From assembly GCF_054482525.1 (NCBI RefSeq), contig NZ_CM137006.1: a stretch of 64,000 bases of DNA; one strand, written 5' to 3'. The position numbers were made by a program, and so were the translations under genes. Below are positions 14,272 through 33,088 of this stretch, one piece after another. The notes under the pieces were generated by a model. It saw only the letters and a program-made list of their open reading frames with translations. It did no database searches and was not told where the DNA came from. Positions within the stretch are counted from its first letter, which is position 1. Each line of letters begins with the position of its first letter.

Positions 14272-16005
14272 ATGGAAATCATGTTACCAAAAAACACCTT
14301 ATATGACAGAGAGCAAAATGTCTTTTTTGAAAAGGTTACGGCCTTAATTGGCGAAAATGGTGCTGGTAAGTCCTCGATTTTACAATCCGTATTTATTAAC
14401 TGTTTAACAAAAAAATATCTACCAGAAACAAAGGTTGTTTGTTTTTCTTCTGGACAAAATGAGAAATACTCAACGTACTTCTCTGATTATCTTTCTCATG
14501 AAAGGCAAGCAAATAGAGGTCTTAACTTAGATTGTTGTTATTACGATAAATCATGGTCAAAGTTACTAATATTCATATCCACAATTTGTAAATCAAATGG
14601 TCTTGTTAGAAATTTTTTATGTGAGAAAGGCTATATTGATGTATCAGATGATAAAAATGATGATATATCAAGCAAGCTTACATTGACGGTCCGAGTAAAT
14701 TCGGCTTACGTTAATCGAGTAAAAATGGCATTAGCACAAGAAGAACAAGGTATTGAAAATACTTTAAGGTATTCAGCTTATCATAGGACTTTAGAAAGTT
14801 TCATTAATAATATTGTTAATGCTGATTATGATTTCGAGTCTCCACTTGAAGCTCAAGAGATCTTGCTAACTCATTCAAATTTTTTCAATCCATCATTTGA
14901 GGAAGCAGAAGATTCCTTTTTTGATCCTATCATAACATTTTTCACTCAAGCAGCAGATAATGATTACTTTATAATAAAACCATCATTACAGCTAGAGTTT
15001 AAAAATAATATCGAACTGAATGATATTAGTGATGGGGAATATCAAGTACTCTTTTTATACTCTCTGCTTGATATTTTTGATAGTCCTAATACTTTATTCT
15101 TATTAGATGAGATAGATTCCCATTTACATTACAAGAATATTGAGCTCTTATGGCATCGACTACATAGTATTAATGGTTATGCGATAACAACCACCCATCT
15201 ATTAGACTCAATTACAGCTACTGATAATGATTTTAAAAACTTAAAGATTGTTGATAAAGGAAAAATAAAAGAAGATGATAAAATAAAAACTATAATAGAA
15301 CGTTTATCTGTCTTGACAAGAATATCAGACGTACAGTTCGAAGTGTGTCGTAAACTAGAAAACATAGTATTGATGGATGATTATAATGATTGGACTATTT
15401 TTTATGCCTTAGCAAAGAAAAAAGGACTTGATGTATCAAAGTTAGATGGCCTCCATGCAATAAAACAGTCCTCTGGTTACGATAATTTAAATCAAGAGTT
15501 CGCAAAACCAAAAATAGAGTGGATTAATTCGCTTTCAAATGTAAATACTGATAAGAAAGTCAAAAAAATATTCATGATCTGCGACAAAGATGAGGCTCCA
15601 ATTACCTATCAGAAAGATGGAGTTCAAGTCAATGGAAGTGAATATTCAAAACATATAGCGAAGTTAGAAAATAAAAACAAAAATAAAATATATCTCCTTG
15701 CTTGGAAAAGAAGAGAAATAAAAAACTACTTATTATCTTATACGGCATTGTCTCATCATGGATTTATCGGGCAAATAAACAATGGTGATCTGCCGGCTAA
15801 CAGTTATTTAAAAGAAAACAATCCTGGAGATAATTCAGCAATTAGCCGGCTTAATGTAAAACATTGCATCACAAAAATAATTGATTCTGATGGTATAGGA
15901 TTAGATATCTCAAAACTTTACTCATATATAGAACTTATACCACCTGCTGAGATCAGTGAAGATATAGTGAACATGTACAATTTTTTGGTGGAGAAATTAA
16001 AATGA
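14272..16005 (+). CDS. ABC-type ATPase fused to a C-terminal DUF4435/Toprim-like domain (OLD / PARIS AriA-AriB-like architecture)
   Basis: Walker A GENGAGKSS; signature-like SDGEYQ; Walker B LFLLDEIDSHLH; H-loop TTTH. C-terminal IVLMDDYNDW..FY, MICDKDE and KRREIKNYLL resemble DUF4435. Very AT-rich. Confidence 0.75.
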   Translation: MEIMLPKNTLYDREQNVFFEKVTALIGENGAGKSSILQSVFINCLTKKYLPETKVVCFSSGQNEKYSTYFSDYLSHERQANRGLNLDCCYYDKSWSKLLIFISTICKSNGLVRNFLCEKGYIDVSDDKNDDISSKLTLTVRVNSAYVNRVKMALAQEEQGIENTLRYSAYHRTLESFINNIVNADYDFESPLEAQEILLTHSNFFNPSFEEAEDSFFDPIITFFTQAADNDYFIIKPSLQLEFKNNIELNDISDGEYQVLFLYSLLDIFDSPNTLFLLDEIDSHLHYKNIELLWHRLHSINGYAITTTHLLDSITATDNDFKNLKIVDKGKIKEDDKIKTIIERLSVLTRISDVQFEVCRKLENIVLMDDYNDWTIFYALAKKKGLDVSKLDGLHAIKQSSGYDNLNQEFAKPKIEWINSLSNVNTDKKVKKIFMICDKDEAPITYQKDGVQVNGSEYSKHIAKLENKNKNKIYLLAWKRREIKNYLLSYTALSHHGFIGQINNGDLPANSYLKENNPGDNSAISRLNVKHCITKIIDSDGIGLDISKLYSYIELIPPAEISEDIVNMYNFLVEKLK

Positions 16006-17909
16006 ACACCTCTTTATTTGAAGATCTACTTACACTAATCAAGAAAAAGAGTTCGATAAGAAATACAGAGCAAGCAGTAGAGTTAATTTCATTATTTATT
16101 TTTTTACATTATATAAAATTATATCTTTATGAAAATGATAAAAGATTTTCAGATATAAAAAACATATCAAGCAACAACATTAATGAAATTAAATATTATT
16201 ACCAGCAACTATATGAAAGTTTTATTTTCTCGATAGATATAAAAAATATAAACCACGACATGCTTGAAAACCTCAGGAGTAAGATAGGTTTTTTAATTAA
16301 TAACATCAATGACCATGAAATAATTAAATATATAGATTATTCTATTTCGCAGATACATTCACTTACAGAATTCCATCAATATGCAAATTCTTATCAATCT
16401 TTAATTCTTAGGATGGTTAATGAATCGGGTCGTTCAGGTGAATATGTTACTCCATCTGCTTTAGTTCAGCTCATGGTTGAAATGTTATCACCTACAGATG
16501 GCACATCAATCTACGACCCAGCATGTGGAACTGGGGGTTTATTAATAGAGTCAGCACGATATATTAAAGGCAACAGTTTAAACAAAAACTTAAATTTAAA
16601 TTATTCCCTTATTGGTAATGACACATCATCATTTGCCTGTCTAATCTCAATTGTTAACCTTTTAATCAATAAAGAATTTAATTTTGAAATAATACTAAAA
16701 GATAGCTTAGATATAAATTATAAGAATAAAAAATATGACTTTGTTTTAACTAACCCACCATTTGGGAAAAAGAGCTGTTGGGATAATATTCATATTGACA
16801 CACATTATAAAGGACCTAATCTAGACTATTACTTCCTGGAGCATGTTATTGACTCTCTCGCTGTTAATGGCAAAGCAGCCATGATATTACCAGAGCGTTT
16901 TTTATATGATGTGAGTGAAGAGTGCATCACTCTTAAAGATAAGATCTTCCAAAATTATAATTTAGATTGTATTTTATCTATACCGTCAGGTGCATTGCTT
17001 CCTTACACTGCAGTAAAATTATGTATTCTTTTTATAAGTAATTCTGGCCCAACAGATAGAATATTTTTCTACAATTTAAATAATGGTGAAAAATACTCAC
17101 GTACAAATATTATAAAATTCGATGATTTTATAGATTTTTTAGAGTCAGCAAAAAATAGAACAATAACTGAACACTCCTGGATTATCAATATTAGTGATAC
17201 ACCTTCATCTTATAACTTACTCTTAAAAGATAAAGAGCGAAACTCATATGAGTTTCTTAGTGATTCTATAGTTAACATTGAACAGACAATACGTAATAAT
17301 GAATTATTACTAACAGAGTTGTCTTTATTAAGAGAAAAAATAGCAATCTTAGAGTCAACAATAAAAAATCATTCGCATGAATATGAATTTGAGAGACTTA
17401 AAGTTGGAAATATTGCAATAGTAAAATCCGGAAATTTATTACAAAAAAACAGGCTGTTACCCACTGGACCAATTCCTGTATACGGTGGAAATGGAGTTAT
17501 TGGATATAATAATGAAGCAATGGAAAATGGTGAAAATATTATTATTGGTAAGGTCGGAGCTCTTTGCGGAAACGTTCGGTATGTTCAAGGTGATATTTGG
17601 GTGACAAATAACTCATTAATTATTAAGAATTATTCACCAAATAAAGTTTTAACACCCTACCTTGCAAAATTATTATCTACTTTAAACTTAAGAAGGCTCG
17701 CCGTTGGTACCGCTCAGCAATATTTAACCACGACACAAATAAAAAATGTAGAAGTTAGTATTCCACCTTTAACGACCCAGTATAAATTAAATATTTGGCT
17801 TGATGAGTTAGATAATACGCTTGAACAATATAATAATCTCATTGAAAAAATAATGAATGATAAGCGAGAACTTAAAGAGAATTTGTATAAAGGTCTTTTA
17901 ATAGAATAG
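16002..17909 (+). CDS. N6-adenine DNA methyltransferase (HsdM-like) fused to a single HsdS-type target recognition domain
   Basis: Motif I DPACGTGGLLIE and motif IV TNPPFGKK. C-terminal ~200 aa resembles one HsdS TRD plus a conserved helix (GKVGALCGNV, WVTNNSLII, SIPPLTTQ). ATGA start/stop overlap with the upstream gene. Confidence 0.8.
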   Translation: MNTSLFEDLLTLIKKKSSIRNTEQAVELISLFIFLHYIKLYLYENDKRFSDIKNISSNNINEIKYYYQQLYESFIFSIDIKNINHDMLENLRSKIGFLINNINDHEIIKYIDYSISQIHSLTEFHQYANSYQSLILRMVNESGRSGEYVTPSALVQLMVEMLSPTDGTSIYDPACGTGGLLIESARYIKGNSLNKNLNLNYSLIGNDTSSFACLISIVNLLINKEFNFEIILKDSLDINYKNKKYDFVLTNPPFGKKSCWDNIHIDTHYKGPNLDYYFLEHVIDSLAVNGKAAMILPERFLYDVSEECITLKDKIFQNYNLDCILSIPSGALLPYTAVKLCILFISNSGPTDRIFFYNLNNGEKYSRTNIIKFDDFIDFLESAKNRTITEHSWIINISDTPSSYNLLLKDKERNSYEFLSDSIVNIEQTIRNNELLLTELSLLREKIAILESTIKNHSHEYEFERLKVGNIAIVKSGNLLQKNRLLPTGPIPVYGGNGVIGYNNEAMENGENIIIGKVGALCGNVRYVQGDIWVTNNSLIIKNYSPNKVLTPYLAKLLSTLNLRRLAVGTAQQYLTTTQIKNVEVSIPPLTTQYKLNIWLDELDNTLEQYNNLIEKIMNDKRELKENLYKGLLIE

Positions 17910-17989: not shown

Positions 17990-20900
17990 TTAATAATGCT
18001 CCTCAATATACCCATACGCCTTCTGGAACAACTCTTTATCTTTCCCTAGTCCAAACTGGGCCAAGGTCAGCAAAAGCGCCTTTTGGATTTCGCGCGGGCC
18101 ACTGTTAGAATTTTGCCAGCCATCAAAGCGGGTAGCTTTCACAATTTTATCAATTTGCTCTACAACATCACCGATTAACTTAGGGGTAGTTTCCGGACGT
18201 GTTTCGAGGAAAAGCTTAGTCAACGCCTGTTTATTATCAGCTTCAGTTACTGGACGCTCGCCCGTTTCGCGCTCGGCTTGAACGGTATCTTTCGCTGCAT
18301 CCAACAGGCCTTTCAACCAGTCAATGGCCTTGATAACACCAGCTTCATAGTCCTGACGCAGTTTTTCAAGGCGCTCGCCCAATGCCACAAATTTAGGATC
18401 ATGACTGCCGCGCAAACGTCCCATAAGATCAATCTCCAGGCGTTTAGCACGTTGTTCCTGCTCTTTAGCGGTCAGGGTAAAAATAGCGTGCTCGTCCATG
18501 ACCAACTCGTCAATATCATCGCGAATACGATTGATATCAGTATGCTCATGGATCATCTTGATTGTTTCGGGGCCAAGGGCAGCCCAAACAAGCGCACCTG
18601 TCTGCCCTACCGGACGCACCGATTCATAAATTTGCGCCAGCCATTTATAGTCCTGACGATAAGGGGTCAAAAAAGGGTCTGGGTTGATAGCTGACCATAA
18701 CTTGGATAACACACCAAAGCTGGCAGCGAATTCATCGCGCTTCTCGTTGGTCGGCAGGCATTCCTGCGCGGCCATAATACCTTCAAAACCAGCTATGGAC
18801 CGATCCACACCAGGGAAGAAGGACAAACATTTATTCAGTTGTAACGGCAATAGCTCTTTAAATGCCTCAATTCCCTCTACAACTCCTTCAATTTCTTCAG
18901 GGTTATAGGCCAGAGCGGTACGCAGATTTTCGAAAACGCCGAGGTAGTCGATAATTAATCCCATGTCCTTGCGTACAGTATCGGTTTCGTACAGCCGGTT
19001 AGTTCGGCACATGGCCTGCAGAAGGGTATGATCGCGTAGAGGCTTATCGAGGTACATGCAGTAGCAAATCGGGGCATCAAAGCCCGTAAGCAGCTTGGCG
19101 GTTACGATAATAAGCTGTAATGGATATTCAGGATCTTTAAAGCACTCAATTAGATCCTTTTGCACCTGCTCTTCGGCATCGATGTGCTGCCAGCGTTCAA
19201 AATCGACTTGTTTGACAGGCAGCTCCAACTCATCATGCCATTTAAGCCAATCCTTGTTGAGCTTGTCTTTTTTGCCACCCTCTTCAACTTTAATCGGAGC
19301 CTGGTCAACGTTCATAACCACTTCAACTGCATCAAAACCAAGCTTTTCACCGAGCAAATAATACATCTGCACACAGGCTTCGCGATCGTATACCACAACC
19401 ATGCCTTTCATCTTTTTCGGCATAACATGGTTGGTAAAATGCTCAGCAATATCATTACTCACCGCAGCCATACGTCTGGGAGATTTCAGCATAATAGCCA
19501 GCTTGCCGGCACGTCTGGACAATGCTGCTTTTTCTTCTTCATCCAGGTTGTTTTCGGTAGCCAGTTGCTCGAACTCTTCATTGATGGCATCACGATCCAC
19601 TCGGAGTTCAGCCAGCCGAGGTTCGAACTTCACCGGGTTAGTTGCGCCATCCCGGATCGACTGCTTATAGCTATAGCGGCTCATATAGCGACCTGGATCT
19701 TCTTCGGCACCGAACAATTTGAACGTATTACGATCAATGCCAGAAATCGGAGTACCAGTCAGGCCATAGAAGTGGGCATTGGGCAACGCCCAGCGCATTT
19801 TCTCGCCTAATCCCCCTTCCTGTGTACGGTGAGCTTCGTCAACCAACACAATGATATTGTCCCGGTTGTTCAGGCCATTAGGGTTGCTATCGTCAATTTC
19901 GATATCTTTAAATTTAAAGATGGTGGTGATTAAAATGCCACGGCTGTCTTGTTCAATGTATTCACCCAACTTTTTGCAGCTTTGCACTTTAATCAGATTC
20001 TTAACGTCGGCTCCACCAAAGGTCTCGTTAATTTGGCTGTCCAGATCTCGCCGGTCCACAACGATAAGTACCGTCGGGTTTTTTAACGCATTATCGGCAC
20101 GTAGCATTTTGGCGGCGTAAAGCATCAACAAGGATTTACCCGATCCCTGGAAATGCCAAATAAGACCTTTTTTTGGATAGCCTCTGCGAACACGCTCAAC
20201 AATTTGTTTTGCAGCTTCAAATTGCGGATAACGCGGCAAGATTTTAACGCGTTTAGGTGGAGTATTTTTGCCCGTTTTGACGGTTGAAAATAATGCAAAA
20301 GATTCCAGTAACTGCAATAAGGTTTGCGGATTTAACAAACTCTCACAGCTATTGAGTACCGATGCCAGACCCGGCAAAATTTCATCACGAAGCTCAGTAT
20401 TATGCCAGGGTCCCCAGTCTTTAACTCGGGCATTAATGGCTCCATAGGCAAAGGTTTTACCTTCGCTGGCAAAGCACAGCAAGTTAGGTACAAAGAAAGA
20501 TTCAACATTTTTCCAGTAGTACTTTTTGCCACCCATGAAATCGGCAGCACCGTCTTGCCAGGTCACGCTGGGGCGTGTTGCGGTTTTAACTTCGCCTACT
20601 ACCAGTGGCATGCCGTTCACATAAAGAACAATATCAAAATAGACTTCAGTGGCCGCGATATAGTGAACCTGCTGCGCCACTACAAAGTGGTTGTTCTCTA
20701 TATTGTCAAAATCAATCAGATTGATGGTGATATGGTCGCCATTCTTACCAAAAGGCAAGGTTTTGTCGGCCATCAACCATTCCTGGAAGTTTTCATTGGC
20801 CTTTACCAAGCCGGTATGGCGGGCTTCTAAAACCACTCCTCGCAGTTTGTAAATGACCTCATCGGCATAGTCAGGCTGTCTGCCGATATCAGGGTTTAAC

Positions 20901-21052
20901 GAACAAAGCGCGTCTTTTAGCCACTCATCAACGAATATATCCTGCGCTTGTTTAGGCAGGTTTTCACCGTGGCAGTAAGTCCACTTGACTCCGCTTAAAC
21001 CTTTTAAACGGTCGATAATTCCATTTTCTGTGACGGTTTGTTCGTTAAACAT
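17990..21052 (-). CDS. hsdR: Type I restriction enzyme R subunit HsdR
   Basis: 1020 aa from MFNEQTV. PD-(D/E)xK-like DIVLYVNGMPLVVGEVK; helicase motifs QGSGKS and VDEAHRTQ. The start lies 1 nt after the hsdS stop. Confidence 0.93.
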   Translation of the reverse strand: MFNEQTVTENGIIDRLKGLSGVKWTYCHGENLPKQAQDIFVDEWLKDALCSLNPDIGRQPDYADEVIYKLRGVVLEARHTGLVKANENFQEWLMADKTLPFGKNGDHITINLIDFDNIENNHFVVAQQVHYIAATEVYFDIVLYVNGMPLVVGEVKTATRPSVTWQDGAADFMGGKKYYWKNVESFFVPNLLCFASEGKTFAYGAINARVKDWGPWHNTELRDEILPGLASVLNSCESLLNPQTLLQLLESFALFSTVKTGKNTPPKRVKILPRYPQFEAAKQIVERVRRGYPKKGLIWHFQGSGKSLLMLYAAKMLRADNALKNPTVLIVVDRRDLDSQINETFGGADVKNLIKVQSCKKLGEYIEQDSRGILITTIFKFKDIEIDDSNPNGLNNRDNIIVLVDEAHRTQEGGLGEKMRWALPNAHFYGLTGTPISGIDRNTFKLFGAEEDPGRYMSRYSYKQSIRDGATNPVKFEPRLAELRVDRDAINEEFEQLATENNLDEEEKAALSRRAGKLAIMLKSPRRMAAVSNDIAEHFTNHVMPKKMKGMVVVYDREACVQMYYLLGEKLGFDAVEVVMNVDQAPIKVEEGGKKDKLNKDWLKWHDELELPVKQVDFERWQHIDAEEQVQKDLIECFKDPEYPLQLIIVTAKLLTGFDAPICYCMYLDKPLRDHTLLQAMCRTNRLYETDTVRKDMGLIIDYLGVFENLRTALAYNPEEIEGVVEGIEAFKELLPLQLNKCLSFFPGVDRSIAGFEGIMAAQECLPTNEKRDEFAASFGVLSKLWSAINPDPFLTPYRQDYKWLAQIYESVRPVGQTGALVWAALGPETIKMIHEHTDINRIRDDIDELVMDEHAIFTLTAKEQEQRAKRLEIDLMGRLRGSHDPKFVALGERLEKLRQDYEAGVIKAIDWLKGLLDAAKDTVQAERETGERPVTEADNKQALTKLFLETRPETTPKLIGDVVEQIDKIVKATRFDGWQNSNSGPREIQKALLLTLAQFGLGKDKELFQKAYGYIEEHY

Positions 21053-21053
21053 T

Positions 21054-22241
21054 TTATATTTCCTTATCAATCATAGCTTGGCGCAGTTGAATAATTTTCC
21101 CCAAGGATTCATTGTGCCTATAAATATTCTCATACGAACACTTAAACGTATTAATGATTGATGCTTGAATATCGAAGGGAGGAATAGGAATTTGAATTTT
21201 TAAAAAGTTATCTTTATTTATTTTCTTCATACTTCCGCTAGTTCCAGCAGCAATACCTTGAATAGCTCGACGGCCATATGGAGACATCAGATAGTACATT
21301 AAAAACTCTTTTTTAATAAATTTTTCGTCAACAGCCAATCTCCACATCGTGTCTGGGAAAATCGTATTCCCATTGCCAGTCGATCCTTTATATTTTCCAA
21401 CTAAACCAACCAACTCCGCTGTATTAGAACGAGAGATTAACAAATCACCATCATTGCATGTTTTTCCTTTTAAAAAATGATCTTCTGTAATATTTTTTAA
21501 AGTAGTTTCTCTGAATCCTGATTTCGACAAACTATTTAGGTTCAGGACATAGTACCCAGTCCCGACTGCGGTTTCAACAGGAGAATATCCCCCTTCTGGA
21601 GAATCAATTAAAACATCTTTAATAGAACCAAAAGTCCATCCAACCGGAAGAGGAACACATTTATTCTCCCTCGAATCAAAGTAGTTATCAAAAGTCCGTA
21701 GACCAATAGCATATAATAATCTTTTAGCTGCTTTGAGAGCACTTAAATATAGAAGTTCTTTCTTTGCTAACGAATCAAAGATTATTAATGACGAGTATTG
21801 CTGTTCAATGCTCGGTATATTAACTTCTAGTTTATTTAAATCACTCCATTTTATTCGCGATGATAGCGAGCCGGCGGAATTTGCAATCACCTTTTCCATA
21901 AAAGAGGTTGATTGCATCAAGTGGGGTAAGTACCCATCCAATAAGTAGTTGTTTTTCCTTGGTTTAATTACCATTGCATCAGCAGAGCAAATACCATTAA
22001 TAGGGCTCACCGACACCCTTTTTAAATATGTATTTCGTCTACTAAAAATTATTTCGCCACACTTTACCTTAAAGGCTTGTGTTTTCAATTCAACGTCAGC
22101 CCCCCAATCATGAACATAAAAATAACCAGATTTCAAATGTTCCAACCCAATAAAATGCTTAGCATCGTCGCTTGTTGGGGAGATTCTAACCATAACCTGT
22201 TCAGCAAGATCACCAAATGTAACATTTCTTTTATTATTCAT
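21054..22241 (-). CDS. hsdS: Type I R-M specificity subunit HsdS (two TRDs)
   Basis: 395 aa from MNNKRNVTFGDL. Two TRD-like halves separated by a helical spacer. AT-rich. Overlaps the hsdM stop. Confidence 0.88.
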   Translation of the reverse strand: MNNKRNVTFGDLAEQVMVRISPTSDDAKHFIGLEHLKSGYFYVHDWGADVELKTQAFKVKCGEIIFSRRNTYLKRVSVSPINGICSADAMVIKPRKNNYLLDGYLPHLMQSTSFMEKVIANSAGSLSSRIKWSDLNKLEVNIPSIEQQYSSLIIFDSLAKKELLYLSALKAAKRLLYAIGLRTFDNYFDSRENKCVPLPVGWTFGSIKDVLIDSPEGGYSPVETAVGTGYYVLNLNSLSKSGFRETTLKNITEDHFLKGKTCNDGDLLISRSNTAELVGLVGKYKGSTGNGNTIFPDTMWRLAVDEKFIKKEFLMYYLMSPYGRRAIQGIAAGTSGSMKKINKDNFLKIQIPIPPFDIQASIINTFKCSYENIYRHNESLGKIIQLRQAMIDKEI

Positions 22242-23739
22242 TATTATATTTCTCTCTATCAATTTCATAGCCAATGCTATCCAAGCTATCAAACAATACC
22301 TTGATATTTCTTTTGAGTTTTACGCTACTGACTTTCCATGATTCGATAGCATGCTGAATATCATTCATTTTGACATTGTTTTGAGATTTCACATAAAGTG
22401 AAATCGATAAATTATAGAAATTTTCTTTAATAGCTTCGATATCCACTAAAGCGGTTATGTCGTTTTTTTTCTCCGGATTAAAATAAGCCTCGCATAATAC
22501 TTCCAAATCATCATCAGATAGGCGACTATGGGCACGTTCACGGGTAACATACTCAACCCCGTTGATAAACAAAACCTTATTTTTGCGTTCAGCAGGTTTA
22601 TTGCAATTAAGCACCACCAAGCAAGATTCCATCGGCGAGTTGTAAAACAGATTTGGTCCCAAACCAATCACCGCTTCGATTATGTCGGATTCAATCACCT
22701 GTTTACGAATGGCTTGTTCAGAATCACGGAACAGTACACCATGCGGCCAGAGCATGGCAGCACGACCGGTGTCGGGTTTTAAACTTTTGATTATATGGGT
22801 ATAAAACGCATAATCAGCACAACCTTGTGGAGGCACGCCATAGAGATTACGCCCATAGGGATCGGCTGCAAACTTGTCACGATTCCATTTCTTAATGGAG
22901 TATGGTGGGTTAGCAAAAATCACATCAAACTGCTTGAGCCGATCGTTTTCAATAAACTTTGGCTCAGCCAAAGTATCACCACGCAGCACATCAAACTCTT
23001 CAATATCATGCAGGAACATATTCATACGAGCAATAGCGGAAGTCAGCAGGTTCACTTCCTGACCATAAAGGTGCACAGAGCGCCACTCTTCTCCTCTTGC
23101 ACGAAGATCCATCACTGCATTTAGCAACATCCCTCCAGTGCCACACGTTGGATCATAGGCTGTTTCACCCGGTTTTAAGCCCATAATGCGCGTCATTAAA
23201 TGCACGACTGTTCGGTTGGTGTAGAACTCTGCTGCCGTATGACCGGAATCATCAGCGAACTTTTTAATCAGGTATTCGTAGGCCTCACCAAGATCATCCT
23301 GAGCGACAGATTTAATACCGAGCGGTATTTTACTGAAATGTTCAATCAGATCAGCCAGCAGATGATCGGGCAGGCGCTCTTTATTGGTCCACTGCGCATC
23401 ACCGAAGACGCCATGTAAACGCGGATTATTGGCTTCAATTAGTCGAAGCGCATTCTGGATCGCTTCACCAATGTTTTTACTGGTATTGCGTACCTTTTCC
23501 CAACTGGCTTCAGAGGGAATATTGAAACGGTGAAACATCGGCATGGCGGCATATTCAGCATCACCTTCATGGAGTTCCAGCGCTTCGTTATATTCTTCCA
23601 GATAGACATCTGACAGGCGTTTGTAAAACAGCAACGGGAAGATATACTGCTTGTAGTCTGATGCGTCAATTTGGCCACGAAGAAATTCGGCGGCTCCCCA
23701 GAGCAGCTCTTCCAGCTTTTTATTACTCATAGTACTCAT
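22234..23739 (-). CDS. hsdM: Type I R-M methyltransferase subunit, distal paralog (HsdM-2)
   Basis: HsdM N-terminal domain; EFYTNRTVV; DPTCGTGGML; ANPPYSIKKW. ATGA overlap with the upstream hsdM paralog. Confidence 0.9.
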   Translation of the reverse strand: MSTMSNKKLEELLWGAAEFLRGQIDASDYKQYIFPLLFYKRLSDVYLEEYNEALELHEGDAEYAAMPMFHRFNIPSEASWEKVRNTSKNIGEAIQNALRLIEANNPRLHGVFGDAQWTNKERLPDHLLADLIEHFSKIPLGIKSVAQDDLGEAYEYLIKKFADDSGHTAAEFYTNRTVVHLMTRIMGLKPGETAYDPTCGTGGMLLNAVMDLRARGEEWRSVHLYGQEVNLLTSAIARMNMFLHDIEEFDVLRGDTLAEPKFIENDRLKQFDVIFANPPYSIKKWNRDKFAADPYGRNLYGVPPQGCADYAFYTHIIKSLKPDTGRAAMLWPHGVLFRDSEQAIRKQVIESDIIEAVIGLGPNLFYNSPMESCLVVLNCNKPAERKNKVLFINGVEYVTRERAHSRLSDDDLEVLCEAYFNPEKKNDITALVDIEAIKENFYNLSISLYVKSQNNVKMNDIQHAIESWKVSSVKLKRNIKVLFDSLDSIGYEIDREKYNNE

Positions 23740-25235
23740 ACCTCGAACCCTTCTTTGATAAGCAGGGCCTCCAGCTCCTCTTCTGCTTTTTCCAGCTCAG
23801 CCAGCTTCCGTTGAAAATCTTTGAGCGCCTCTTCCACAGTGATGGTTTCTTCTTCGAGTGGCTTTTGCACATAACGAGCAATATTTAGATTGAAGTCATT
23901 TTCTTCAATCTCCTTCAGAGGAACCCAGCGTGCAACGCCTTCGATTTCTTTTGCATCTGGCCCTTGTTGCGCCTGGTCATGATAGATTTGGTATATTTCA
24001 TCGGCCTGCTTGTTGGACAGCGTATTCTGCGCACGTCCCTTGGTATAGATTTCTTCAGCATTGATGATCAATACATGATCTTTATGCGCGGCCGGACGTG
24101 ATTTACGCAGCACCAAAATACACGCAGGAATCCCAGTTCCATAGAACAGGTTGGAAGCAACACCAATAATCGCCACAATGCGATTCTCTTGCAGTAATTT
24201 GGTTCGAATTGCCCCCTCTGCGCCGCCACGAAACAGCACACCATGAGGTAATACGACTGCCATACGTCCATTGTCGTTAAGTGAAGCAAACATATGCTGC
24301 ACCCAGGCAAAATCACCATTTGTTTTAGGCGCCAGGCCATATTGCTTACGGCCATAGGGATCGTTCGACCACAGATCGTATCCCCATTCTTTTAAGCTAA
24401 ACGGTGGGTTGGCAACAACGCAGTCAAAGGTTTCTAAACGATCGCTTTTTAAAAATTTAGGTTCGCGTAAAGTATCCCCTCGGACAATATCGAAATCTTC
24501 CTGTCCATGCAGGAACAGATTCATACGCGCAATAGCTTCCGTCGTTAAGTTCTTTTCCTGACCCTTGATTTTTAGTAAACGCGGATCACCACCATTTTCT
24601 TTTACATGGTGGATGGTCTCAAGCAGCATACCACCGGTACCACAGGCGGGATCGTAGACACTCTCACCGGCTTTTGGATCAAGAATGTTAACCATCAAAC
24701 GAACGATAGTTCGTGGGGTATAGAACTCACCTGCTTTCTTATTGGCTTTGTCTGCAAAGCGTTTGATCAGATACTCGTATGCGCGCCCCATATCATCGTC
24801 ACGGACACTAGAAACGCCAAGGTTCACCTTATTGAAGTGATTGAGTAACGTAGCCAGTAACTCATCAGAAAGGCGTTCTTTATTGGTCCAGCTGGCATCG
24901 CCAAAAATGCCATGCAGTTTAGGGTTTGCCAGTTCTATACCACGGAAGGACTCTTTTAAAGCCTGACCGATGTCCTTGGTCTCAGCGAAAACATCGCGCC
25001 AGTGGCAATTTTCAGGTATCTGAATACGGTGAAACATCTTGCCCTTGGCAAGCTCTGCATCCCCAACGCTCTCCATCGCATCAGCAAATTCTTCGTCATA
25101 CACGTCACAAATGCGCTTGAAGAACAAGATGGGGAAAATGTACGTTTTGTAATCTGACGCATCAATGGGCCCTGTAATAATATGGGCTGCATGCCATAGA
25201 TGGGCCTCGAGATCTTTTAGGTTAATCAGTGTCAT
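23736..25235 (-). CDS. hsdM: Type I R-M methyltransferase subunit, proximal paralog (HsdM-1)
   Basis: 499 aa from MTLINLKDLEAHLWHAA; EFYTPRTIV; DPACGTGGML; ANPPFSLKEW; C-terminal coiled coil. The ORF-track extension was trimmed. Confidence 0.9.
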   Translation of the reverse strand: MTLINLKDLEAHLWHAAHIITGPIDASDYKTYIFPILFFKRICDVYDEEFADAMESVGDAELAKGKMFHRIQIPENCHWRDVFAETKDIGQALKESFRGIELANPKLHGIFGDASWTNKERLSDELLATLLNHFNKVNLGVSSVRDDDMGRAYEYLIKRFADKANKKAGEFYTPRTIVRLMVNILDPKAGESVYDPACGTGGMLLETIHHVKENGGDPRLLKIKGQEKNLTTEAIARMNLFLHGQEDFDIVRGDTLREPKFLKSDRLETFDCVVANPPFSLKEWGYDLWSNDPYGRKQYGLAPKTNGDFAWVQHMFASLNDNGRMAVVLPHGVLFRGGAEGAIRTKLLQENRIVAIIGVASNLFYGTGIPACILVLRKSRPAAHKDHVLIINAEEIYTKGRAQNTLSNKQADEIYQIYHDQAQQGPDAKEIEGVARWVPLKEIEENDFNLNIARYVQKPLEEETITVEEALKDFQRKLAELEKAEEELEALLIKEGFEV

Positions 25236-25478: not shown

Positions 25479-26296
25479 TTGGCGCAAAATGGCGGCATTT
25501 ACTCATTTCTCCATCGGAGCATCTTACGCGCTATAACCACTCTCGTTTTTTCCTATTCCCATGCAGATGAAGCACTACGCAATGAACTTGAGAAGCATCT
25601 CTCCCCGCTGAAGCGAACCGGGAAGATCACAACATGGCACGATCGCCGCATCGTTCCTGGTCAGGAGTTCGAACGTCAGATCGACCACTATTTTTCGCAA
25701 GCAGATATCATCCTGATCCTGATCCTGATCCTGATCAGCAGTGACTTTATTGCTTCTGATTACTGCTATCAGGTAGAGATGAAAAACGCACTGGAACGGC
25801 ATGACCGGGGCGAGGCGGTGGTCATTCCGGTAATTTTAAGAAACTGTGCATGGCATCAGTTATAATTCGGCAGCATTATGGCGGCGACTATCGACGGTAA
25901 ACCCATCACTAAGTTTGCCACCCACGATGAAGGCTACGTTCAGGTCGTCGAGGCCGTCTCGCGTGCCATTGCCCGGATGGAAGCCAAAAAACTACAGCAA
26001 ACCATACATATCCCTTCACCGGCTCCGGCGAATCCGATCTTTTAGGGAGTAGATTCCGTTTTTACACCGCGTTCAAGCAACCTTACTCTATCTGTTATAG
26101 CCAGGATAATGTTGTTCGAAACAGTATTAACGAAATTGTAAGCCTTGCTGATAACGGCCAGACTCTTGGTTTTCGTGCTCTGATGGGAGGCTTCAGTCGT
26201 GGAACTTCACGAGACGAACTATTGACCAATGAAGGTATGTCGGAACATCTCTGGGAAATGTTCTTCGGGCTAATCAAGCAAAGAATGTCCCGATAA
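25479..26296 (+). pseudogene. Disrupted TIR-domain protein gene
   Basis: TIR signature VFSYSHADEALRNELEKHL...SSDFIASDYC...VIPVILRNCAW. In-frame TAA at 25863 and TAG at 26043. The likely ATG at 25489 is out of frame. The C-terminal part (..ADNGQTLGFRALMGG..KQRMSR*) is readable only in frame +2. Confidence 0.8.
25710..25736 (+). repeat. Hexanucleotide tandem repeat (atcctg x4.5) inside the TIR gene
   Basis: atcctgatcctgatcctgatcctgatc, translated ILILILILI within a conserved TIR strand. Confidence 0.95.
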
Positions 26297-26480: not shown

Positions 26481-27476
26481 TCATGCAGGCAAATACGTTT
26501 TCTTAAGCGGCACCAACAGCTTAGTTTCAATATCCACCTGCTCATAGTTTTCCACTAACGCGCGTACCAAATCGTCCAGCGTCCATAGCGTCAACGGGAT
26601 TGTAGAACGATCGGCCTCATAACGCGCATCCTTGCTGAATCCGCCGGTACTAACATACAGCCCGCGATCGTCTTTATGACGGCCACCGATAAAGCTACGG
26701 ATTTGCTGGCTGCTCATCTGTTCCCGCCGGTGCTTCACCTCAACAATAATGCGCGGATTTTCAAACCCAAATCCGTCAGGCGAAGCAATGATGTCTTTCC
26801 CACGGTCAGCACCCGCAGGCGATACCTGAGTTTTATATCCCATGCTGCGTAACACGCCAGCGACCAGATTCTGCATCTCATCCCAGTCGAGACGGTTGAT
26901 ACGATCCTTGATGCCTTCAAAAGCGATCATTTCCATGTCGCGCAGAGGATTAGAAACGACCTCATCCTCTTCACCTGAAACAGGTACTTCCGGCACGATA
27001 TCTGAGACAGGCTTATTGCCCTGCACTAATTCATTCACAGCAAAATCAGGCACCTGAAAAACTGTCAGCGTTGAACCAAGGGTGTTTCTGGTTGCATCAC
27101 TCAGACTATCGCGCTTAATCTCTTCCGCATTCCACTTCACTTTACGGGCGATGCCCATGCCATCTTCAAGCCACTCGGCATGAAACTCAAAATCTGACGC
27201 TATTTTCCCTATTAAATAGGTCCGATTAGAAGGTGAATAAGTGATAGCCCAGTCGCCTTTCTGCATTTCATTCACAAAGCGCCAGACCTGAGAAGCTCCA
27301 GAACGAACTGTGCCTGGCTTAGTCTGTGGCTCAAGCTCCTGATACCGGGTAAACAACTGCTCTCTTGAGCATCCAGGTTTCACATAGGGAGCGAGCTGCG
27401 ACCAACCAATTGCAACAACCTGTTTGTCTCTGAAGTCGTCGTACAATTTTCCGCCATCACCGCGGATCATCCACAT
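26481..27476 (-). CDS. Mrr-like (type IV) restriction endonuclease with N-terminal uncharacterised domain
   Basis: C-terminal Mrr_cat-like block (RGKDIIAS...IIVEVKHRRE..STGGFSKDA). Start chosen at MWMIRGDGGKLY; the ORF-track extension overlaps the upstream gene. Confidence 0.8.
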   Translation of the reverse strand: MWMIRGDGGKLYDDFRDKQVVAIGWSQLAPYVKPGCSREQLFTRYQELEPQTKPGTVRSGASQVWRFVNEMQKGDWAITYSPSNRTYLIGKIASDFEFHAEWLEDGMGIARKVKWNAEEIKRDSLSDATRNTLGSTLTVFQVPDFAVNELVQGNKPVSDIVPEVPVSGEEDEVVSNPLRDMEMIAFEGIKDRINRLDWDEMQNLVAGVLRSMGYKTQVSPAGADRGKDIIASPDGFGFENPRIIVEVKHRREQMSSQQIRSFIGGRHKDDRGLYVSTGGFSKDARYEADRSTIPLTLWTLDDLVRALVENYEQVDIETKLLVPLKKTYLPA

Positions 27477-27597
27477 CTTAGTCGCCACAATAATTCCTTC
27501 TGAAAATACTTCATCGTTATACCGGGACGTGATCATTCCATTCAGCCATCTTATCCAGGGAAAAACACCGATAAGATGGCTAATCAAAATGTCTGTT

Positions 27598-30500
27598 CTA
27601 AACCTGACGCCTCTCAAGACTATTATAAATAGCCTCAATTTCACCTTTCAGGTTATCACCAGAGTAAACCATCGATGTATCGTATCGTTCATATCGCGCT
27701 TCCCGTGTCGCACTAAACCAGTTGAACGATCCCACGCATAGCAAACCATCATCACCAATAACAATTTTGCTATGAACACGGTTTACCAGCTTTGTAGCAA
27801 TACCCAGCGCATTCAGTTTCTCCAGCGCCGCTTTAAGGTTCTGCTGCTTCTCTTTTCGCTTCTCAAAATCTTTATGTTCAGTGTTGTAGCTTCTGTCAGT
27901 GACTATCGTGACGTTAATACCACGTGAACACGCCGCAATCATGGAATCAAGAAAACCCGTTTGCTCCAGCTTTTGCCAGGTCAGCCATGGAGAAACTATC
28001 GTGATGTGTTTATCGGTATTTTCAAACGTCTGATTCAGGAAATTATCATGCTGCTCCACACCATGGAGTGTGTAGATTTTGGTCTCGGAAGTTTTTAAAT
28101 CCTTACGCTCTTTATAATCAAAAGAGAGCGCATTCTTCTCGGACTCAAAGAGATATTTTGCCAGTAATCCCCGCGGAGATGAGGGAGGCTGGATCTCAAA
28201 CAGATCCATATCGCCGAAGACCAGGAAGCTATCCTTCGCACGGGAGACTGCAACATTCAGCATGCTGTTATCGCTATCAATAAACCCGCCATCTTCATGT
28301 TTTGAATAGACTGGCGAGAATATAACAATCGCTCTTTCCGCTCCCTGAAGAGAGTGCACGGTGCCCACGGTGAGCGACTTTTCATTCGCGCCCGTACTGA
28401 TACCTTGTTTACCCAGCGCCTGTTTGATAGTGGATACCTGCGCGCTAAAAGGCGTCACGATACCGACAACTTCATGAAGCGATTTGCCGTAATGCGCTTC
28501 AATATTTTGCTGGTTCTCTGCCAACCAGGCCGCTATCGTTTCAGCCTCAAGCAAATTATATCTACTTCCACTACTTGCCAGCTCTCCTTTACCATCAATA
28601 TGGAGATAACCCATTGCGGGCATTAAATTGCTCTCTTCGCGCCCTCTTTTAGGCAACAACTTACCGTGATAGCAGAGCGTATTACAGTATCCAATAATAT
28701 TATCGAAGCACCGGCGGTGTTCATATAGGTACATACCACGAGCCAGTTCGGGATCATATTGATAGCGCGAAGCAAACTGCGCTATTTTCATAACGCTGCC
28801 AGATGCGGCACTTTTACCAAGGTCTGCGATTGCCGTATATTTCTCGGTAATCTCTTCTTGCGTACTGCCAGACAGAATTTTTTCCGCAAGCATGTTACCG
28901 ACATCAATCGCGGGAGCAATACTCCATATTGGCGGGATCTGCTCCGTATCGCCAATCACTAATGCCTTCTTAGCTAATGCAAACGAGGCAGCAGCCACTT
29001 CAGGAAGCACCTGCCCGGCTTCATCGACAATGAGTAAATCGGCAAAATCATACAAATAACTTTTCTCGAATTTACGTTGTCCTTTGTGCTCACTTATCTG
29101 CATATTGCCGGGCAGCATATAGCATGTCATCACCACACATGGAGTGAGTTTCATTCGACGTTGCCAACGGGCGGTTACCCCTTTAGCGCCTTTTTTCTTC
29201 TTCTCTTCCTGCAGATCATCAATTCTGGCCATATCCATCAGCCAACGACCTTCCCAGTAGTGAGTCGTCAGTAAAAATGCAGGGAAGCGAATCTGCGTAT
29301 CAGCCAGTTCATCGGCCTGTGAGAAGCTCAGTTCCTCGTCGCCCTCATACCCTAAATCAAATGCCAGCCTCTGCCACTCCTGAACCGCCTGCTGTTCTTT
29401 AAGAACGATTTCATGGGCGGAGTCAATCTGCTGCCGGTATGTTGTTTGCTCGCGCTCAGCGGAATTGAGCAGCCCATCAATATTACGTTCGATAGTTTCA
29501 GGATCAGACCACTGATTTCCTGCAATCAGCGCGCCTAATTTATCTTCGAGAAACAACTGTATTTGGTACTGTCGCTTACTACGAACCGCTGGGAGCCAGG
29601 AAAATAATGAATAGATCAGTGATTCACCGGCGCGATATTTTTTCCATTCCGTTTTAGCACTCTTCAGTAGAGTGACTTTTTGTTCTTGTCCGGAAAGTAA
29701 TTTATTTAAATTATCGAGATATTGCTCAATGTCGTTAGCAATAAGCTCACGCGCAGCCCGTACCTGGCTTAACGTTTGCCATGTTGCGTTCAGTCTTATC
29801 AGTTGCTCGGATTTTGCTGCCAACTGACCATGCAGGAGTTCAATGACCTTTTCAGGGGATGAACACTCTTTTTCAGGAAAAGCTGCCTTAGCTTTCTCGA
29901 GATAAAACAGCAGTGCATCCTCTACATACTCTTTTGACTCAACCTGGTTGAAGAAATCTTCAGTTTGATATTTTTTGGCTGCCTCAGCTTTACGAGTGCT
30001 TGAGGGAAAATAAGCGCCGAAGCTTTTCAGCTCTGGCAACCATCGTCCGGCCATCGCACCTGAACCTTGCGAAAAGTCTTTCCCGAATGCCTCAATAATG
30101 TTCGTTACAGCCTGGTTATTCGTTGAAGTCGCGATAATAACCGGAGGCTCAGATTTTTCGAGAGCTGCTCTGGCCCACTGCGTGGCGATGATAGAAAGCA
30201 CCAGCGTGGTTTTTCCGGTTCCCGGAGGTCCATTAACAGCAAGGATATCGCCATGTCTTGCATCCAGAAAATGGCTTAAGGCATCGCGCTGAGCCTTTGC
30301 CAGCGGAAACTTATCTCCGGAGTGTCCAAGCCTGTCGCTGAATTTTGCTCCTGGAGCCAGCAAAGACTCTGCAGCATGAACCTCTCGCGAGGCGAAGCGA
30401 TTGAAGAGCGGCACATCCTTCTTGCAAACAAGCAGGTGATCATAAAGAGAAAGGATATGGAAACTGGCACCGCCAGATTGCGCCGTTTTAACAATATAAC

Positions 30501-31113
30501 CGTGCTCAGCGAGTTCATATTGCTCAGGATTTTTAATCCAGTCGCCGGCAACGTTCTTCAGCAGCCTCTCTGAATCATCCAGATATTGATGCCACTCCTG
30601 CTGCAAGGCTGCATATCGTGCTTCCCGTTCTTCATCCGTTTCGGCAGTCTTATCAATGCTGTCATCAAAGTTGATAGAGAACGAGGTATGGATTGTCTTG
30701 TATTTGTCATACTGCCCAATCTCACCAATCGAAAATGCTCCTTTTGGCAAAGGTTCAAGCAGGTCTCTGGGAATGGAGGTCGCTGGCGTCGGATATAAAA
30801 AACCCTCACGGCTGAGCAAGGCTGGCGTCACTAGCGGGGTAACAATATCAGGTGCGCCTGCGGAACGGTCCTTACCATGCTGCAGTAACCGAAAATAAAC
30901 TTTTGGGCGCAAGACGACATCGACCGTTTCGACATCGTCTTTTTCTCCCTCAAAAAATTTACTGACAATCGCTTCGTCAAGACGTCCCGCCGCTATCCCA
31001 TGCCAGTGAGTGAAATTTTTGGCGTCTTTCCGTTCAAAACTGCCCTTTCCTGACTCAGCATCCGCAAGCGAGTTGCGCCAGTATGAGGCAAACCCTAAAG
31101 CATTTTCATCCAT
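27598..31113 (-). CDS. SF1 (DNA2/NAM7/COG1112-like) helicase with C-terminal PLD-family nuclease domain; type II Mokosh-like architecture
   Basis: Walker [10 protein letters not shown]; LIVDEAGQV; [17 protein letters not shown]-terminal single HKD motif HSKIVIGD plus GSFNW. 1171 aa. Confidence 0.85.
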
Positions 31114-31438
31114 TACCAGTCCTATGACTCAATGAAATCCATTGATTTATCGAATATAAAATCACCGTATGGATAACTATTGTCCACGTTGCAAGGCTGG
31201 CTGCAATGTTTTGTTCACGCTTCGATACAAATACTCAGGTTATACGGAGTTCAGAAAACGACCATATCATGTTGCATGGCACATAAAAGCTTTATAACCG
31301 AAGCAGCAAAGGATTACCGGCTGCGCAGCACGCCCCGAAAGCCCGTGAGCCCTGCTGGACAGCGTTCAGTGCAATATTGGAGCCTGTAAGTTCAGAAAAT
31401 ATCGCTGTCGAAGATGGTTCTGTATGTAGGCGCGCCAG

Positions 31439-31816
31439 CTATCGTTTTGTCCGATGCTTGCGAATAAAAGCATTCAAAATGTCGCCTTCACCATGCATGA
31501 CAGAAAAAGAATATTCACATTCTTTCTTTATCAAGATTCCACATAATTCCTTGTGCAAATCAACATTAACTCCCTTTCCTTTCTGCGCTTTCTTCACACC
31601 GAGCTCACATGAACTGATTAATTCAACGGTACAGGGTTTCTTCAGATAATTCACACCATCAATTAAGCCCTGGAGAATGCATCTATTTGCGGTCGTATCA
31701 CTGTAGGAGAAAGTCAGATATTTTATTTTTCCTTCGTATTCCAACACAACCTCCGCCGAACCTTCACGTGTTGCAGCATCACAACCTCCTGTTGAATATA
31801 TTTTTACCATCTTCAT
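31439..31816 (-). CDS. Small RNase H-fold protein with degenerate active site
   Basis: Aligns by eye to E. coli RNase HI: VKIYSTGGC / VEIFTDGSC, TTANRCIL / TTNNRMEL, CTVELISSC / CEVILSTDS, VNVDLHKEL / VNVDLWQRL. D10, E48 and D70 equivalents are T, I and S. Confidence 0.65.
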   Translation of the reverse strand: MKMVKIYSTGGCDAATREGSAEVVLEYEGKIKYLTFSYSDTTANRCILQGLIDGVNYLKKPCTVELISSCELGVKKAQKGKGVNVDLHKELCGILIKKECEYSFSVMHGEGDILNAFIRKHRTKR

Positions 31817-31884
31817 TTTGTAACTTTCCCCTTACCAAACGAATCGCGACATCCTATATCAAAGGCATTCTCGTCAAAACTTAA

Positions 31885-32664
31885 TTATCTCAGTAAATTC
31901 TTCCGATGCCACTCCAGATAACAATACGATTCAACAGAAAACGCCTTTATTTTCTCCGGCAACAAACATTGCTCTTTAACGCTAATATCCAGCGCCTTAC
32001 TAATTAATAAATGCCCATCGTTCTCAAACGAAATCCATCCCTGATCGAATAGAATATCAATATGCGCAGCCAATATAATTCCATTAAAAGGATCAAGCCG
32101 TTCATTCCCATTCTCGCAGGCAGCCCACGGCTTTATATGGCTGGTACGCAGTAAAGGTGCAAACGTCGTTCCCGTAACAGGACATGCCGGATACAACATA
32201 AGACAATTTTTCCGAAAGGTACCTTGCCCCAGCCGTGCCGCAATCAGCTGCTCGCGTACGGTATCTTCAATACTTTTATCCTGCTGAATAGCAAGACAGT
32301 CACGTTGTGCCTGTTCATCTCCAGCAGAAGATATTAACGAAAGAACGCGCTGCTCAATCGCACTGTCTGAAAGCACACTCATTCGCTGATACACACGCTG
32401 CGCTGAATGAGAAAGCGCAGCAGGAGCGCCCTGCTCGTCAAGCCAGCCGACACGCACATCACTAAGCCAGGAATCAAAACGGTCACGACTATTTTTCAGA
32501 CTATTGTGAAACTCGCTGGCAGTTTTGCCCGCTCCAAATCGAGGATAAAACAAGGCAAAAGCCTCTTTCCATTTCTGAACACCCAGTCCTGCGGGTGGTT
32601 GAGATTTTCCGTACTTCGACAAATACCACGCCACTTCAAGCAAATCGTCTTCAGAGCTATTCAA
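31885..32664 (-). CDS. HNH_2-family endonuclease with N-terminal uncharacterised domain
   Basis: CPVTG...SHIKPW...NGIILAAHIDILFDQGWISF is typical of the PF13391-type HNH. Apparent TTG start preceded by an AGGA Shine-Dalgarno. Confidence 0.75.
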   Translation of the reverse strand: MNSSEDDLLEVAWYLSKYGKSQPPAGLGVQKWKEAFALFYPRFGAGKTASEFHNSLKNSRDRFDSWLSDVRVGWLDEQGAPAALSHSAQRVYQRMSVLSDSAIEQRVLSLISSAGDEQAQRDCLAIQQDKSIEDTVREQLIAARLGQGTFRKNCLMLYPACPVTGTTFAPLLRTSHIKPWAACENGNERLDPFNGIILAAHIDILFDQGWISFENDGHLLISKALDISVKEQCLLPEKIKAFSVESYCYLEWHRKNLLR

Positions 32665-32965
32665 TATTACGTCCTGTTTTTGCAGAGTAAATTATCACCA
32701 GATTATATCTGAAAAGATCGTTTACTAAACTGATCTGCTTACCTGCAAAACGGTACTGCAAACGCTAATACTCAGAACCATTAAGAGGAACAAGCAGGTG
32801 CATTCCGCTGCCATCGGTCAGTTTGTATTGCTTATCCCCTGCCTCTAGGTACAAGCATTTTCGAAACGGAAATACCATTATCTGTTGGTAGATGTACGTT
32901 GAAGTTGGTTCACCTGGAGAGAGTTAATATAGCGGGAAAGGTAGGTAAATACTGGATTTCAGGTA

Positions 32966-33003: not shown

Positions 33004-33088
33004 TGGTGCCGAAGGCCGGACTCGAACCGGCACGTATTTCTACGGTTGATTTTGAATCAACTGCGTCTACCGATTTCGCCACTTCGGC
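33004..33088 (-). tRNA. leuX: tRNA-Leu (anticodon CAA)
   Basis: Reverse complement reads GCCGAAGTGGCGAAATCGGTAGACGCAGTTGATTCAAAATCAACCGTAGAAATACGTGCCGGTTCGAGTCCGGCCTTCGGCACCA. Cloverleaf with long variable arm; CAA in the anticodon loop. Confidence 0.97.

Follow-up and report, generated by a model that had tools for sequence, protein, structure and literature searches.

The stretch of DNA analysed here, 64,000 nucleotides of contig NZ_CM137006.1 (NCBI RefSeq assembly GCF_054482525.1) and referred to below as the window, is a segment of an Escherichia coli chromosome that carries a defence island between leuX and nanS. Near leuX, two genes follow one another on the same strand (Table 1): the upstream gene encodes an endonuclease of the HNH_2 family, and the downstream one a small protein related to ribonuclease (RNase) HI that has lost its catalytic residues. 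An earlier note, made from the sequence alone, had drawn attention to these genes and proposed that they form one system, the small protein acting as a nucleic-acid-binding or sensing subunit or else as an antitoxin-like regulator of the nuclease. The coordinates, strand, lengths and 68-base-pair (bp) gap that it gave all stand. The distribution of the two genes points to another reading, which we consider rather likely: they are separate cassettes lying side by side in one variant of the leuX island, and not an obligate two-component system.

Table 1. Positions of the two genes, their parts and the surrounding island features in the window (aa, amino acids)
Feature	Position	Strand	Remarks
HNH_2 endonuclease gene	31885-32664	minus	259 aa; TTG start (same in RefSeq); WP_001088804.1 'HNH endonuclease'
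HNH N-terminal helical domain	32305-32664	minus	residues 1 to ~120; strongly conserved
HNH C-terminal His-Me finger catalytic domain	31891-32292	minus	residues 125-258
Spacer between HNH gene and small gene	31817-31884	minus	68 bp; Shine-Dalgarno-like GGGGA ~11 nt before ATG
Predicted catalytically dead RNase HI-like gene	31439-31816	minus	125 aa
Spacer between small gene and mkoC	31114-31438	minus	325 bp; proximal 146 bp (31114-31259) moves with mkoC elsewhere
mkoC (Mokosh type II; superfamily 1 (SF1) helicase and phospholipase D (PLD) nuclease)	27598-31113	minus	1171 aa; outside the pair
Mrr-type restriction endonuclease gene	26481-27470	minus	Pfam Mrr_cat 2.3e-23; RefSeq 'restriction endonuclease'; last of the four-gene block
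TIR-domain gene, frameshifted	25533-26296		island gene
Type I restriction-modification: R, S, M and second M gene	17990-25235		island genes
AAA ATPase and N6 DNA methylase	14272-17909		island gene(s)
P4-type integrase remnant	32666-32860	minus	Arm/DUF4102 N-terminus; internal stop; abuts HNH start
tRNA-Leu(CAA), leuX	33004-33088	minus	ARAGORN; Rfam tRNA 59.4 bits; island integration site

The HNH endonuclease

The assignment of the 259-aa protein to the HNH_2 family, already made in the earlier note, is borne out by Pfam, in which PF13391 matches residues 161-214 with 44.7 bits against a cut-off of 21. The catalytic H176 (SHIKPW) and N194 (NG) do not vary among 36 full-length homologues, at least 90% of which also have H201 (HIDILFD). 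The ratio of nonsynonymous to synonymous substitution rates (dN/dS) of the gene is ~0.14. The family comprises proteins of 259-275 aa with 53-92% identity, encoded in Escherichia, Klebsiella, Salmonella, Citrobacter, Kosakonia, Pantoea and Yersinia. The N-terminal domain was called uncharacterised in the earlier note, and this description remains apt. Residues 1-110 form a helical domain predicted with good confidence, with ~110 confidently helical residues and dense invariant positions, for which no sequence or fold match, no PUA, EVE or SRA domain and no solved structure was found.

The catalytic domain is homologous to that of VcaM4I (E=5.8e-27), an enzyme dependent on 5-methylcytosine (5mC) or 5-hydroxymethylcytosine (5hmC). 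Like the type IV HNH enzymes VcaM4I and TagI, the window protein carries this catalytic domain, and it is the product of a solitary gene; unlike theirs, its N-terminus is all-helical and without a recognised modification-reader domain of the PUA superfamily (EVE/SRA). PADLOC matches the protein with its generic 'HNH' and REase_II models only. In the annotated neighbourhoods read, namely the window and loci L086, L121/L122 and L131, no methyltransferase gene stands beside the HNH gene. The best functional analogue is PcaII (R.PcaRCII) of Pectobacterium carotovorum, which restricts phage and plasmid DNA carrying 5mC and is described as a solitary HNH enzyme whose helical N-terminus is predicted to bind DNA and whose C-terminal half is similar to VcaM4I and TagI (PMC8989522). 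The likeness is one of description; the primers used for the knock-out of PcaII suggest a protein starting with M-A, where the window family has M-N/S.

Our preferred reading of the 259-aa protein is a solitary type IV-like restriction nuclease whose reader domain would be new. The His-Me finger domain would cut DNA, and the family-specific helical domain of ~110 residues would presumably select the target. This target is most likely a DNA modification or another non-self feature, since no methyltransferase lies beside the gene in any context examined, and we infer dependence on modification from the homology to VcaM4I, the solitary state of the gene and the analogy with PcaII. Such solitary HNH restriction enzymes are widespread in Enterobacterales, with a conserved helical N-terminus of no known fold or ligand. 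Should this domain recognise modified DNA, a new kind of reader would join those of the PUA and winged-helix types.

Many N-terminal fragments of 80-105 aa (P0282, P0295, P0296 and others) are encoded in Klebsiella and relatives on contigs of up to 448 kb, a pattern which indicates that the HNH gene is often truncated. Occurrences of the N-terminal domain in other architectures were mostly such truncated copies, too little to speak of domain shuffling. One protein of 209 aa (P0303) is a possible fusion, in which part of the N-terminal motif is linked to an HNH domain of the PF01844 type. At locus L119 (L119:4991-5586), a 98-aa fragment of a ScoMcrA-type sulfur-binding domain (SBD; PF26340), cut by an insertion sequence (IS) fragment, lies upstream of a frameshifted copy of the small gene. 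The HNH domain of the window protein is 57-59% identical to SBD-HNH proteins, which suggests that N-terminal readers can be exchanged within this HNH lineage.

The RNase HI-like protein and its family

The small open reading frame is a real gene, with dN/dS of ~0.15 across 11 alleles from E. coli and gut metagenomes (mkoC, 0.08). Its product matches the NCBIfam RNase HI model NF001236 over residues 1-69 with E=3e-11, at 43 bits where the cut-off is 160, reaches 23.6 bits with Pfam RNase_H (PF00075), just below the cut-off of 25.8, and finds E. coli RNase HI structures in the PDB with E ~3e-6 (phmmer). An AlphaFold2 model based on 31 family members has a mean predicted local distance difference test (pLDDT) of 87.4 and a predicted template modelling (TM) score (pTM) of 0.82. 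Its elements, a five-stranded sheet flanked by helices, follow the RNase H order, beta-beta-beta-alpha-beta-alpha-alpha-beta-alpha, and Foldseek retrieves E. coli RNase HI and relatives from the PDB with E ~1e-11 and TM scores of 0.66-0.78. The RNase H-like fold, which the earlier note had proposed from an alignment by eye, is thus upheld by the fold check.

In alignment with E. coli RNase HI (RnhA), D10, E48, D70 and D134 stand opposite T9, I47, S69 and N115. The first three replacements, and with them the ablated active site, are as the earlier note had read them. Its suggestion that a GEGD motif takes the place of D134 does not hold: D134 aligns with N115, and GEGD lies one helical turn earlier, its acidic position being conserved in about half of the family. 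The two proteins share the fold over its full length at 28% identity and have GSC, TTxNR and NxDL in common; the segments TTxNR and GxNxDL are both retained. What sets the window protein apart from type 1 RNases H is the lack of all four carboxylates and of the basic protrusion, together with scores below the Pfam and NCBIfam cut-offs. The ~15-residue protrusion of RNase HI is deleted, and a conserved basic loop, KAQKGKGVN, is found instead. By alignment and model, chance cannot account for the similarity to RNase HI, the carboxylates are truly lost, and the protein is expected to lack cleavage activity.

Among 1.84 billion cluster representatives searched with a family profile, 547 matched at E<=1e-3 and 134 at E<=1e-10. 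The best 147 were aligned to the profile with the window protein and RnhA, giving 149 rows; the E48 position holds Ile in 84 of them, with Met, Val, Leu or Ala otherwise. Acidic residues are missing at the D10 and D70 positions, and genuine D-E-D RNases H account for only ~4 matches; inactivation is therefore ancient and family-wide. Conserved positions are G19, T42, N44, R45, G50, P61, G73, G82, N84, L87 and L91. T42 and N84 correspond to T43 and N100 of the E. coli enzyme, whose equivalents we take to be part of the pocket for the DNA-strand phosphate in the human RNase H1-hybrid structure; the third pocket residue, presumably R41, is Asp in the dead family. No model specific to the family exists in Pfam, NCBIfam, PHROGs or PADLOC, and a literature search for a dead RNase H defence or anti-defence protein gave nothing relevant. 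Judged by these searches, the dead RNase HI family is large, widespread, kept under selection and not described before. A search of viral contigs with the small-protein profile gave 39 pattern matches, none of which was confirmed as a relative.

Most members stand alone at ~125 aa, and 65 of the 147 listed representatives carry extra domains. Pfam recognises among these 65 the Cauli_VI hybrid-binding domain (2), the GreA/GreB C-terminal domain (2), GIY-YIG (2), the DnaG zinc ribbon (1) and DUF559 (1), the rest being unassigned. By eye only, P0237 has a ParB-like and P0240 an HNH-like segment. Tandem dead RNase H domains form a subfamily of 260-290 aa (P0133, P0170, P0183, P0184, P0194, P0198 and others) with Arg/Ile/His at the former D/E/D positions. 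A subfamily of ~205 aa, Firmicutes-like by eye, has a conserved C-terminal helical tail, and a group of 365-397 aa has an added, unassigned C-terminal domain of 250 aa.

On two Pantoea plasmids (L123:4373-5001, 49% identity; L128:3395-3986, 37%) a homologue of the small gene comes directly after repB (Rep_3) and an iteron field. Both plasmids have the order umuDC - repB - iterons - gene, yet they differ in their iteron sequences, and this synteny suggests an origin-linked role for the homologue. Klebsiella and Enterobacteriaceae plasmids (L124:4478-5369, L125:4433-5372) carry a 42% homologue 40 nt after a Nuc-type PLD nuclease gene and before a DUF159/SRAP gene; the PLD nuclease was rejected as a partner because its full-length form has a signal peptide. 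Other homologues lie near hicAB, zeta toxin, DUF1173 or hipAB genes.

The small protein appears to be a cargo gene product of plasmids and islands. It most probably binds nucleic acid without cutting it, an RNA:DNA hybrid or an RNA-primed template being the best guess in view of its RNase HI ancestry, the retained segments and the fusions to hybrid-binding, primase zinc-finger and RNA-polymerase-binding domains. Binding is plausible, with the fusion partners as indirect support, and it would serve the mobile carrier, for example in origin or primer handling or by shielding a hybrid from host RNase HI. Dead RNase HI proteins could in this way bind and protect or flag RNA:DNA hybrids, and such a role, if true, would bear on the control of plasmid replication and on the ways in which mobile elements cope with the RNase H of their hosts.

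Distribution of the two genes and competing explanations

The HNH gene and the small gene occur together in 141 E. coli genomes (at least 80% coverage), essentially all within one block at leuX. This block, in the order HNH - dead RNase H - mkoC - Mrr endonuclease, is present in 140 of 5426 E. coli genomes. It also accounts for all metagenomic relatives whose small protein has 92% identity or more (L088-L102), and an HNH orthologue of 88% identity sits in such a block as well. At lower identity the genes are found apart. The HNH orthologue of 85% identity (L131, beside efflux genes) and those of 81% (L121/L122, on an integrative conjugative element) have no small gene, and no RNase-H-like reading frame lies within 6 kb of the orthologues of 59-64% from four genera (L006-L009). 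The HNH protein is therefore self-sufficient elsewhere. Conversely, small-protein homologues of at most 57% identity have no HNH_2, MkoC or Mrr neighbour at 13 metagenomic loci, nor in a Pantoea contig and in plasmid and phage records; homologues of 50% lie on a Pantoea plasmid-like contig and beside HicAB. The locus search for the small-protein family was seeded with a 9-sequence alignment, the 31-sequence family alignment being too diverse for this purpose.

The edges of homology fall between the two genes. In L121/L122, DNA homology to the window extends precisely up to the end of the HNH stop codon, 31885, and at HNH-less loci that keep the small gene it begins at window 31989, 31907 or 31857, around the junction. 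HNH-only homology thus ends, and small-gene-only homology starts, near the spacer, so recombination breakpoints are to be placed between the genes. The proposal that the two form one system was not supported by this comparison, in which they proved not to be co-conserved, the pair being confined to one recent haplotype block.

From this pattern we infer that the HNH protein and the small protein are not functionally coupled. The small gene would have arrived behind the HNH gene when cassettes were shuffled at the position of the leuX island next to the integrase. Their pairing is probably a local accident of island assembly in a locus that is otherwise ordinary as a defence-island neighbourhood, and the locus should be ranked lower as a candidate two-gene immune system. 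What it offers instead is two under-described protein families worth modest follow-up.

Against separate cassettes, and in favour of a lineage-specific two-gene defence module, several observations have to be weighed. In such a module the dead RNase H would bind a nucleic acid specific to infection, for instance an R-loop or RNA:DNA hybrid from a phage or plasmid undergoing replication, and would recruit or license the HNH nuclease, by a logic likened to that of short Argonautes with an inactive PIWI domain, which activate HNH effectors. The two genes lie on the same strand with a gap of 68 bp in which no terminator-like site was seen, by scans for promoters and terminators that performed at chance level; they may be co-transcribed. 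In E. coli they always occur together, and both are under purifying selection. Relatives fuse the dead domain to GIY-YIG and DUF559 nucleases, and by eye to the ParB-like and HNH-like segments mentioned above, so a role as nuclease accessory has precedent. The TTxNR and GxNxDL segments align with what we take to be the substrate-contact regions of RNase HI. Moreover, the contexts of diverged homologues are a sample of about a dozen per gene and not a census.

The state of the small gene at loci without the HNH gene is also part of this case. It is broken in two of the four HNH-less lineages, as dependence on HNH would predict: in L103 (L103:6001-6378), where a second Mrr-type endonuclease replaces the HNH gene, a GTG start is followed by TGA at codon 10, and in L119 there is a frameshift. 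The 102-aa product of the L103 form (P0003) is encoded on 352 contigs (Klebsiella oxytoca). L095 and L091, the remaining two lineages without HNH, have kept an intact small gene, and on contig L104 an intact HNH gene stands before a frameshifted small gene. Together with the gene arrangement, these cases are weak and mixed evidence on coupling. Against the two-gene module itself stand the HNH orthologues of 85%, 81% and 59-64% that lack the partner, the small-protein homologues of at most 57% that lack an HNH_2 neighbour, and the low share of nuclease fusions, 3 of the 65 multidomain members by Pfam. In addition, no PADLOC model describes the pair: in PADLOC-DB v2 no known anti-phage system was matched by both proteins and the small protein had no match at all, so that the remark of the earlier note that no named defence system has this composition can be retained. 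Altogether we regard the two-gene module as unlikely. Its counterpart in concept would be the short Argonaute-HNH system SPARHA, in which a catalytically inactive sensor of nucleic acid with an RNase H fold and an HNH effector are encoded together (PMC12738770). The likeness is one of analogy only: SPARHA consists of a MID-PIWI Argonaute and an APAZ-linked HNH effector, whereas the small protein is a single 125-aa domain of RNase HI type, and its pairing with HNH is not conserved. Piwi, MID and APAZ domains were not matched in the small protein by Pfam or PADLOC.

The small size of the second gene and the gene order also suit a toxin-antitoxin layout, in which the small protein would be an antitoxin or immunity factor restraining the HNH nuclease. 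The precedent is HicB, an antitoxin whose domain is a degraded RNase H fold, used as a non-catalytic binding module in mobile two-gene cassettes. The decay of the small gene in two lineages without HNH would fit, and one homologue lies just after a hicAB pair. The fold of the small protein, however, is complete and clearly derived from RNase HI, and Pfam HicB does not match it. The HNH orthologues of 85% and 81% are intact without the small gene, so the nuclease is tolerated alone, as it also seems to be on L104. The small gene lies downstream, at a distance of 68 bp and with no overlap, and most members of its family have no nuclease beside them, some being joined in cis to other domains. An antitoxin role is accordingly very improbable.

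Even smaller is the chance that the small protein belongs to MkoC as an accessory that presents RNA:DNA hybrids to it. Mokosh probably acts on RNA, and mkoC does follow the small gene at every locus of at least 92% identity, including the HNH-less L095 and L103. Yet 905 of 5426 complete E. coli genomes carry mkoC at 96-98% identity, most of them with homology to window 27534-31259 only, without HNH, small gene or Mrr. In most of the ~765 other E. coli genomes, mkoC thus lacks the small gene. This mkoC module has its boundary at 31259, which leaves 180 bp to the small gene; the spacer from gene to gene measures 325 bp, and diverged homologues are never near MkoC. On this distribution MkoC was rejected as the partner of the small protein.

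A mixed explanation is that the family reads RNA:DNA hybrids or primers on behalf of mobile elements and has here been recruited as a sensor or gate of HNH or Mokosh. We think this quite unlikely; if true, it would make the locus a defence module triggered by the replication or transcription hybrids of the invader.

The surrounding leuX island

The product of mkoC matches the PADLOC model MkoC (PDLC03924) over its full length (E=0, 1692 bits) and contains Pfam domains AAA_11, AAA_12 and PLDc_2. Mokosh type II is a single-gene system, so that mkoC alone qualifies as one at the window locus.

The integrase remnant between the HNH gene and leuX has ~60 codons and corresponds to residues 7-69 of the intact L006 integrase (54% identity, E=4e-12, tblastn); in other strains it is annotated as a DUF4102 pseudogene. 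A second copy of the leuX 3' end (>=16 nt) was not found in the window and, as the integrase is reduced to a remnant, the island looks fixed. An Rfam scan of the window gave nothing but the tRNA. The genes on the far side of leuX are presumably the core genes ahr, gntK/idnK and idnD.

Window 11300-33027 is 99.98% identical to E. coli strain PCN033. The match stops inside leuX (window 33027; L001:21728 onward), and the window strain has a different, shorter arrangement at leuX than PCN033. At that point PCN033 carries a further CP4-like element, which includes IS2, radC, an antirestriction gene and toxin-antitoxin genes of the cbtA/cbeA type.

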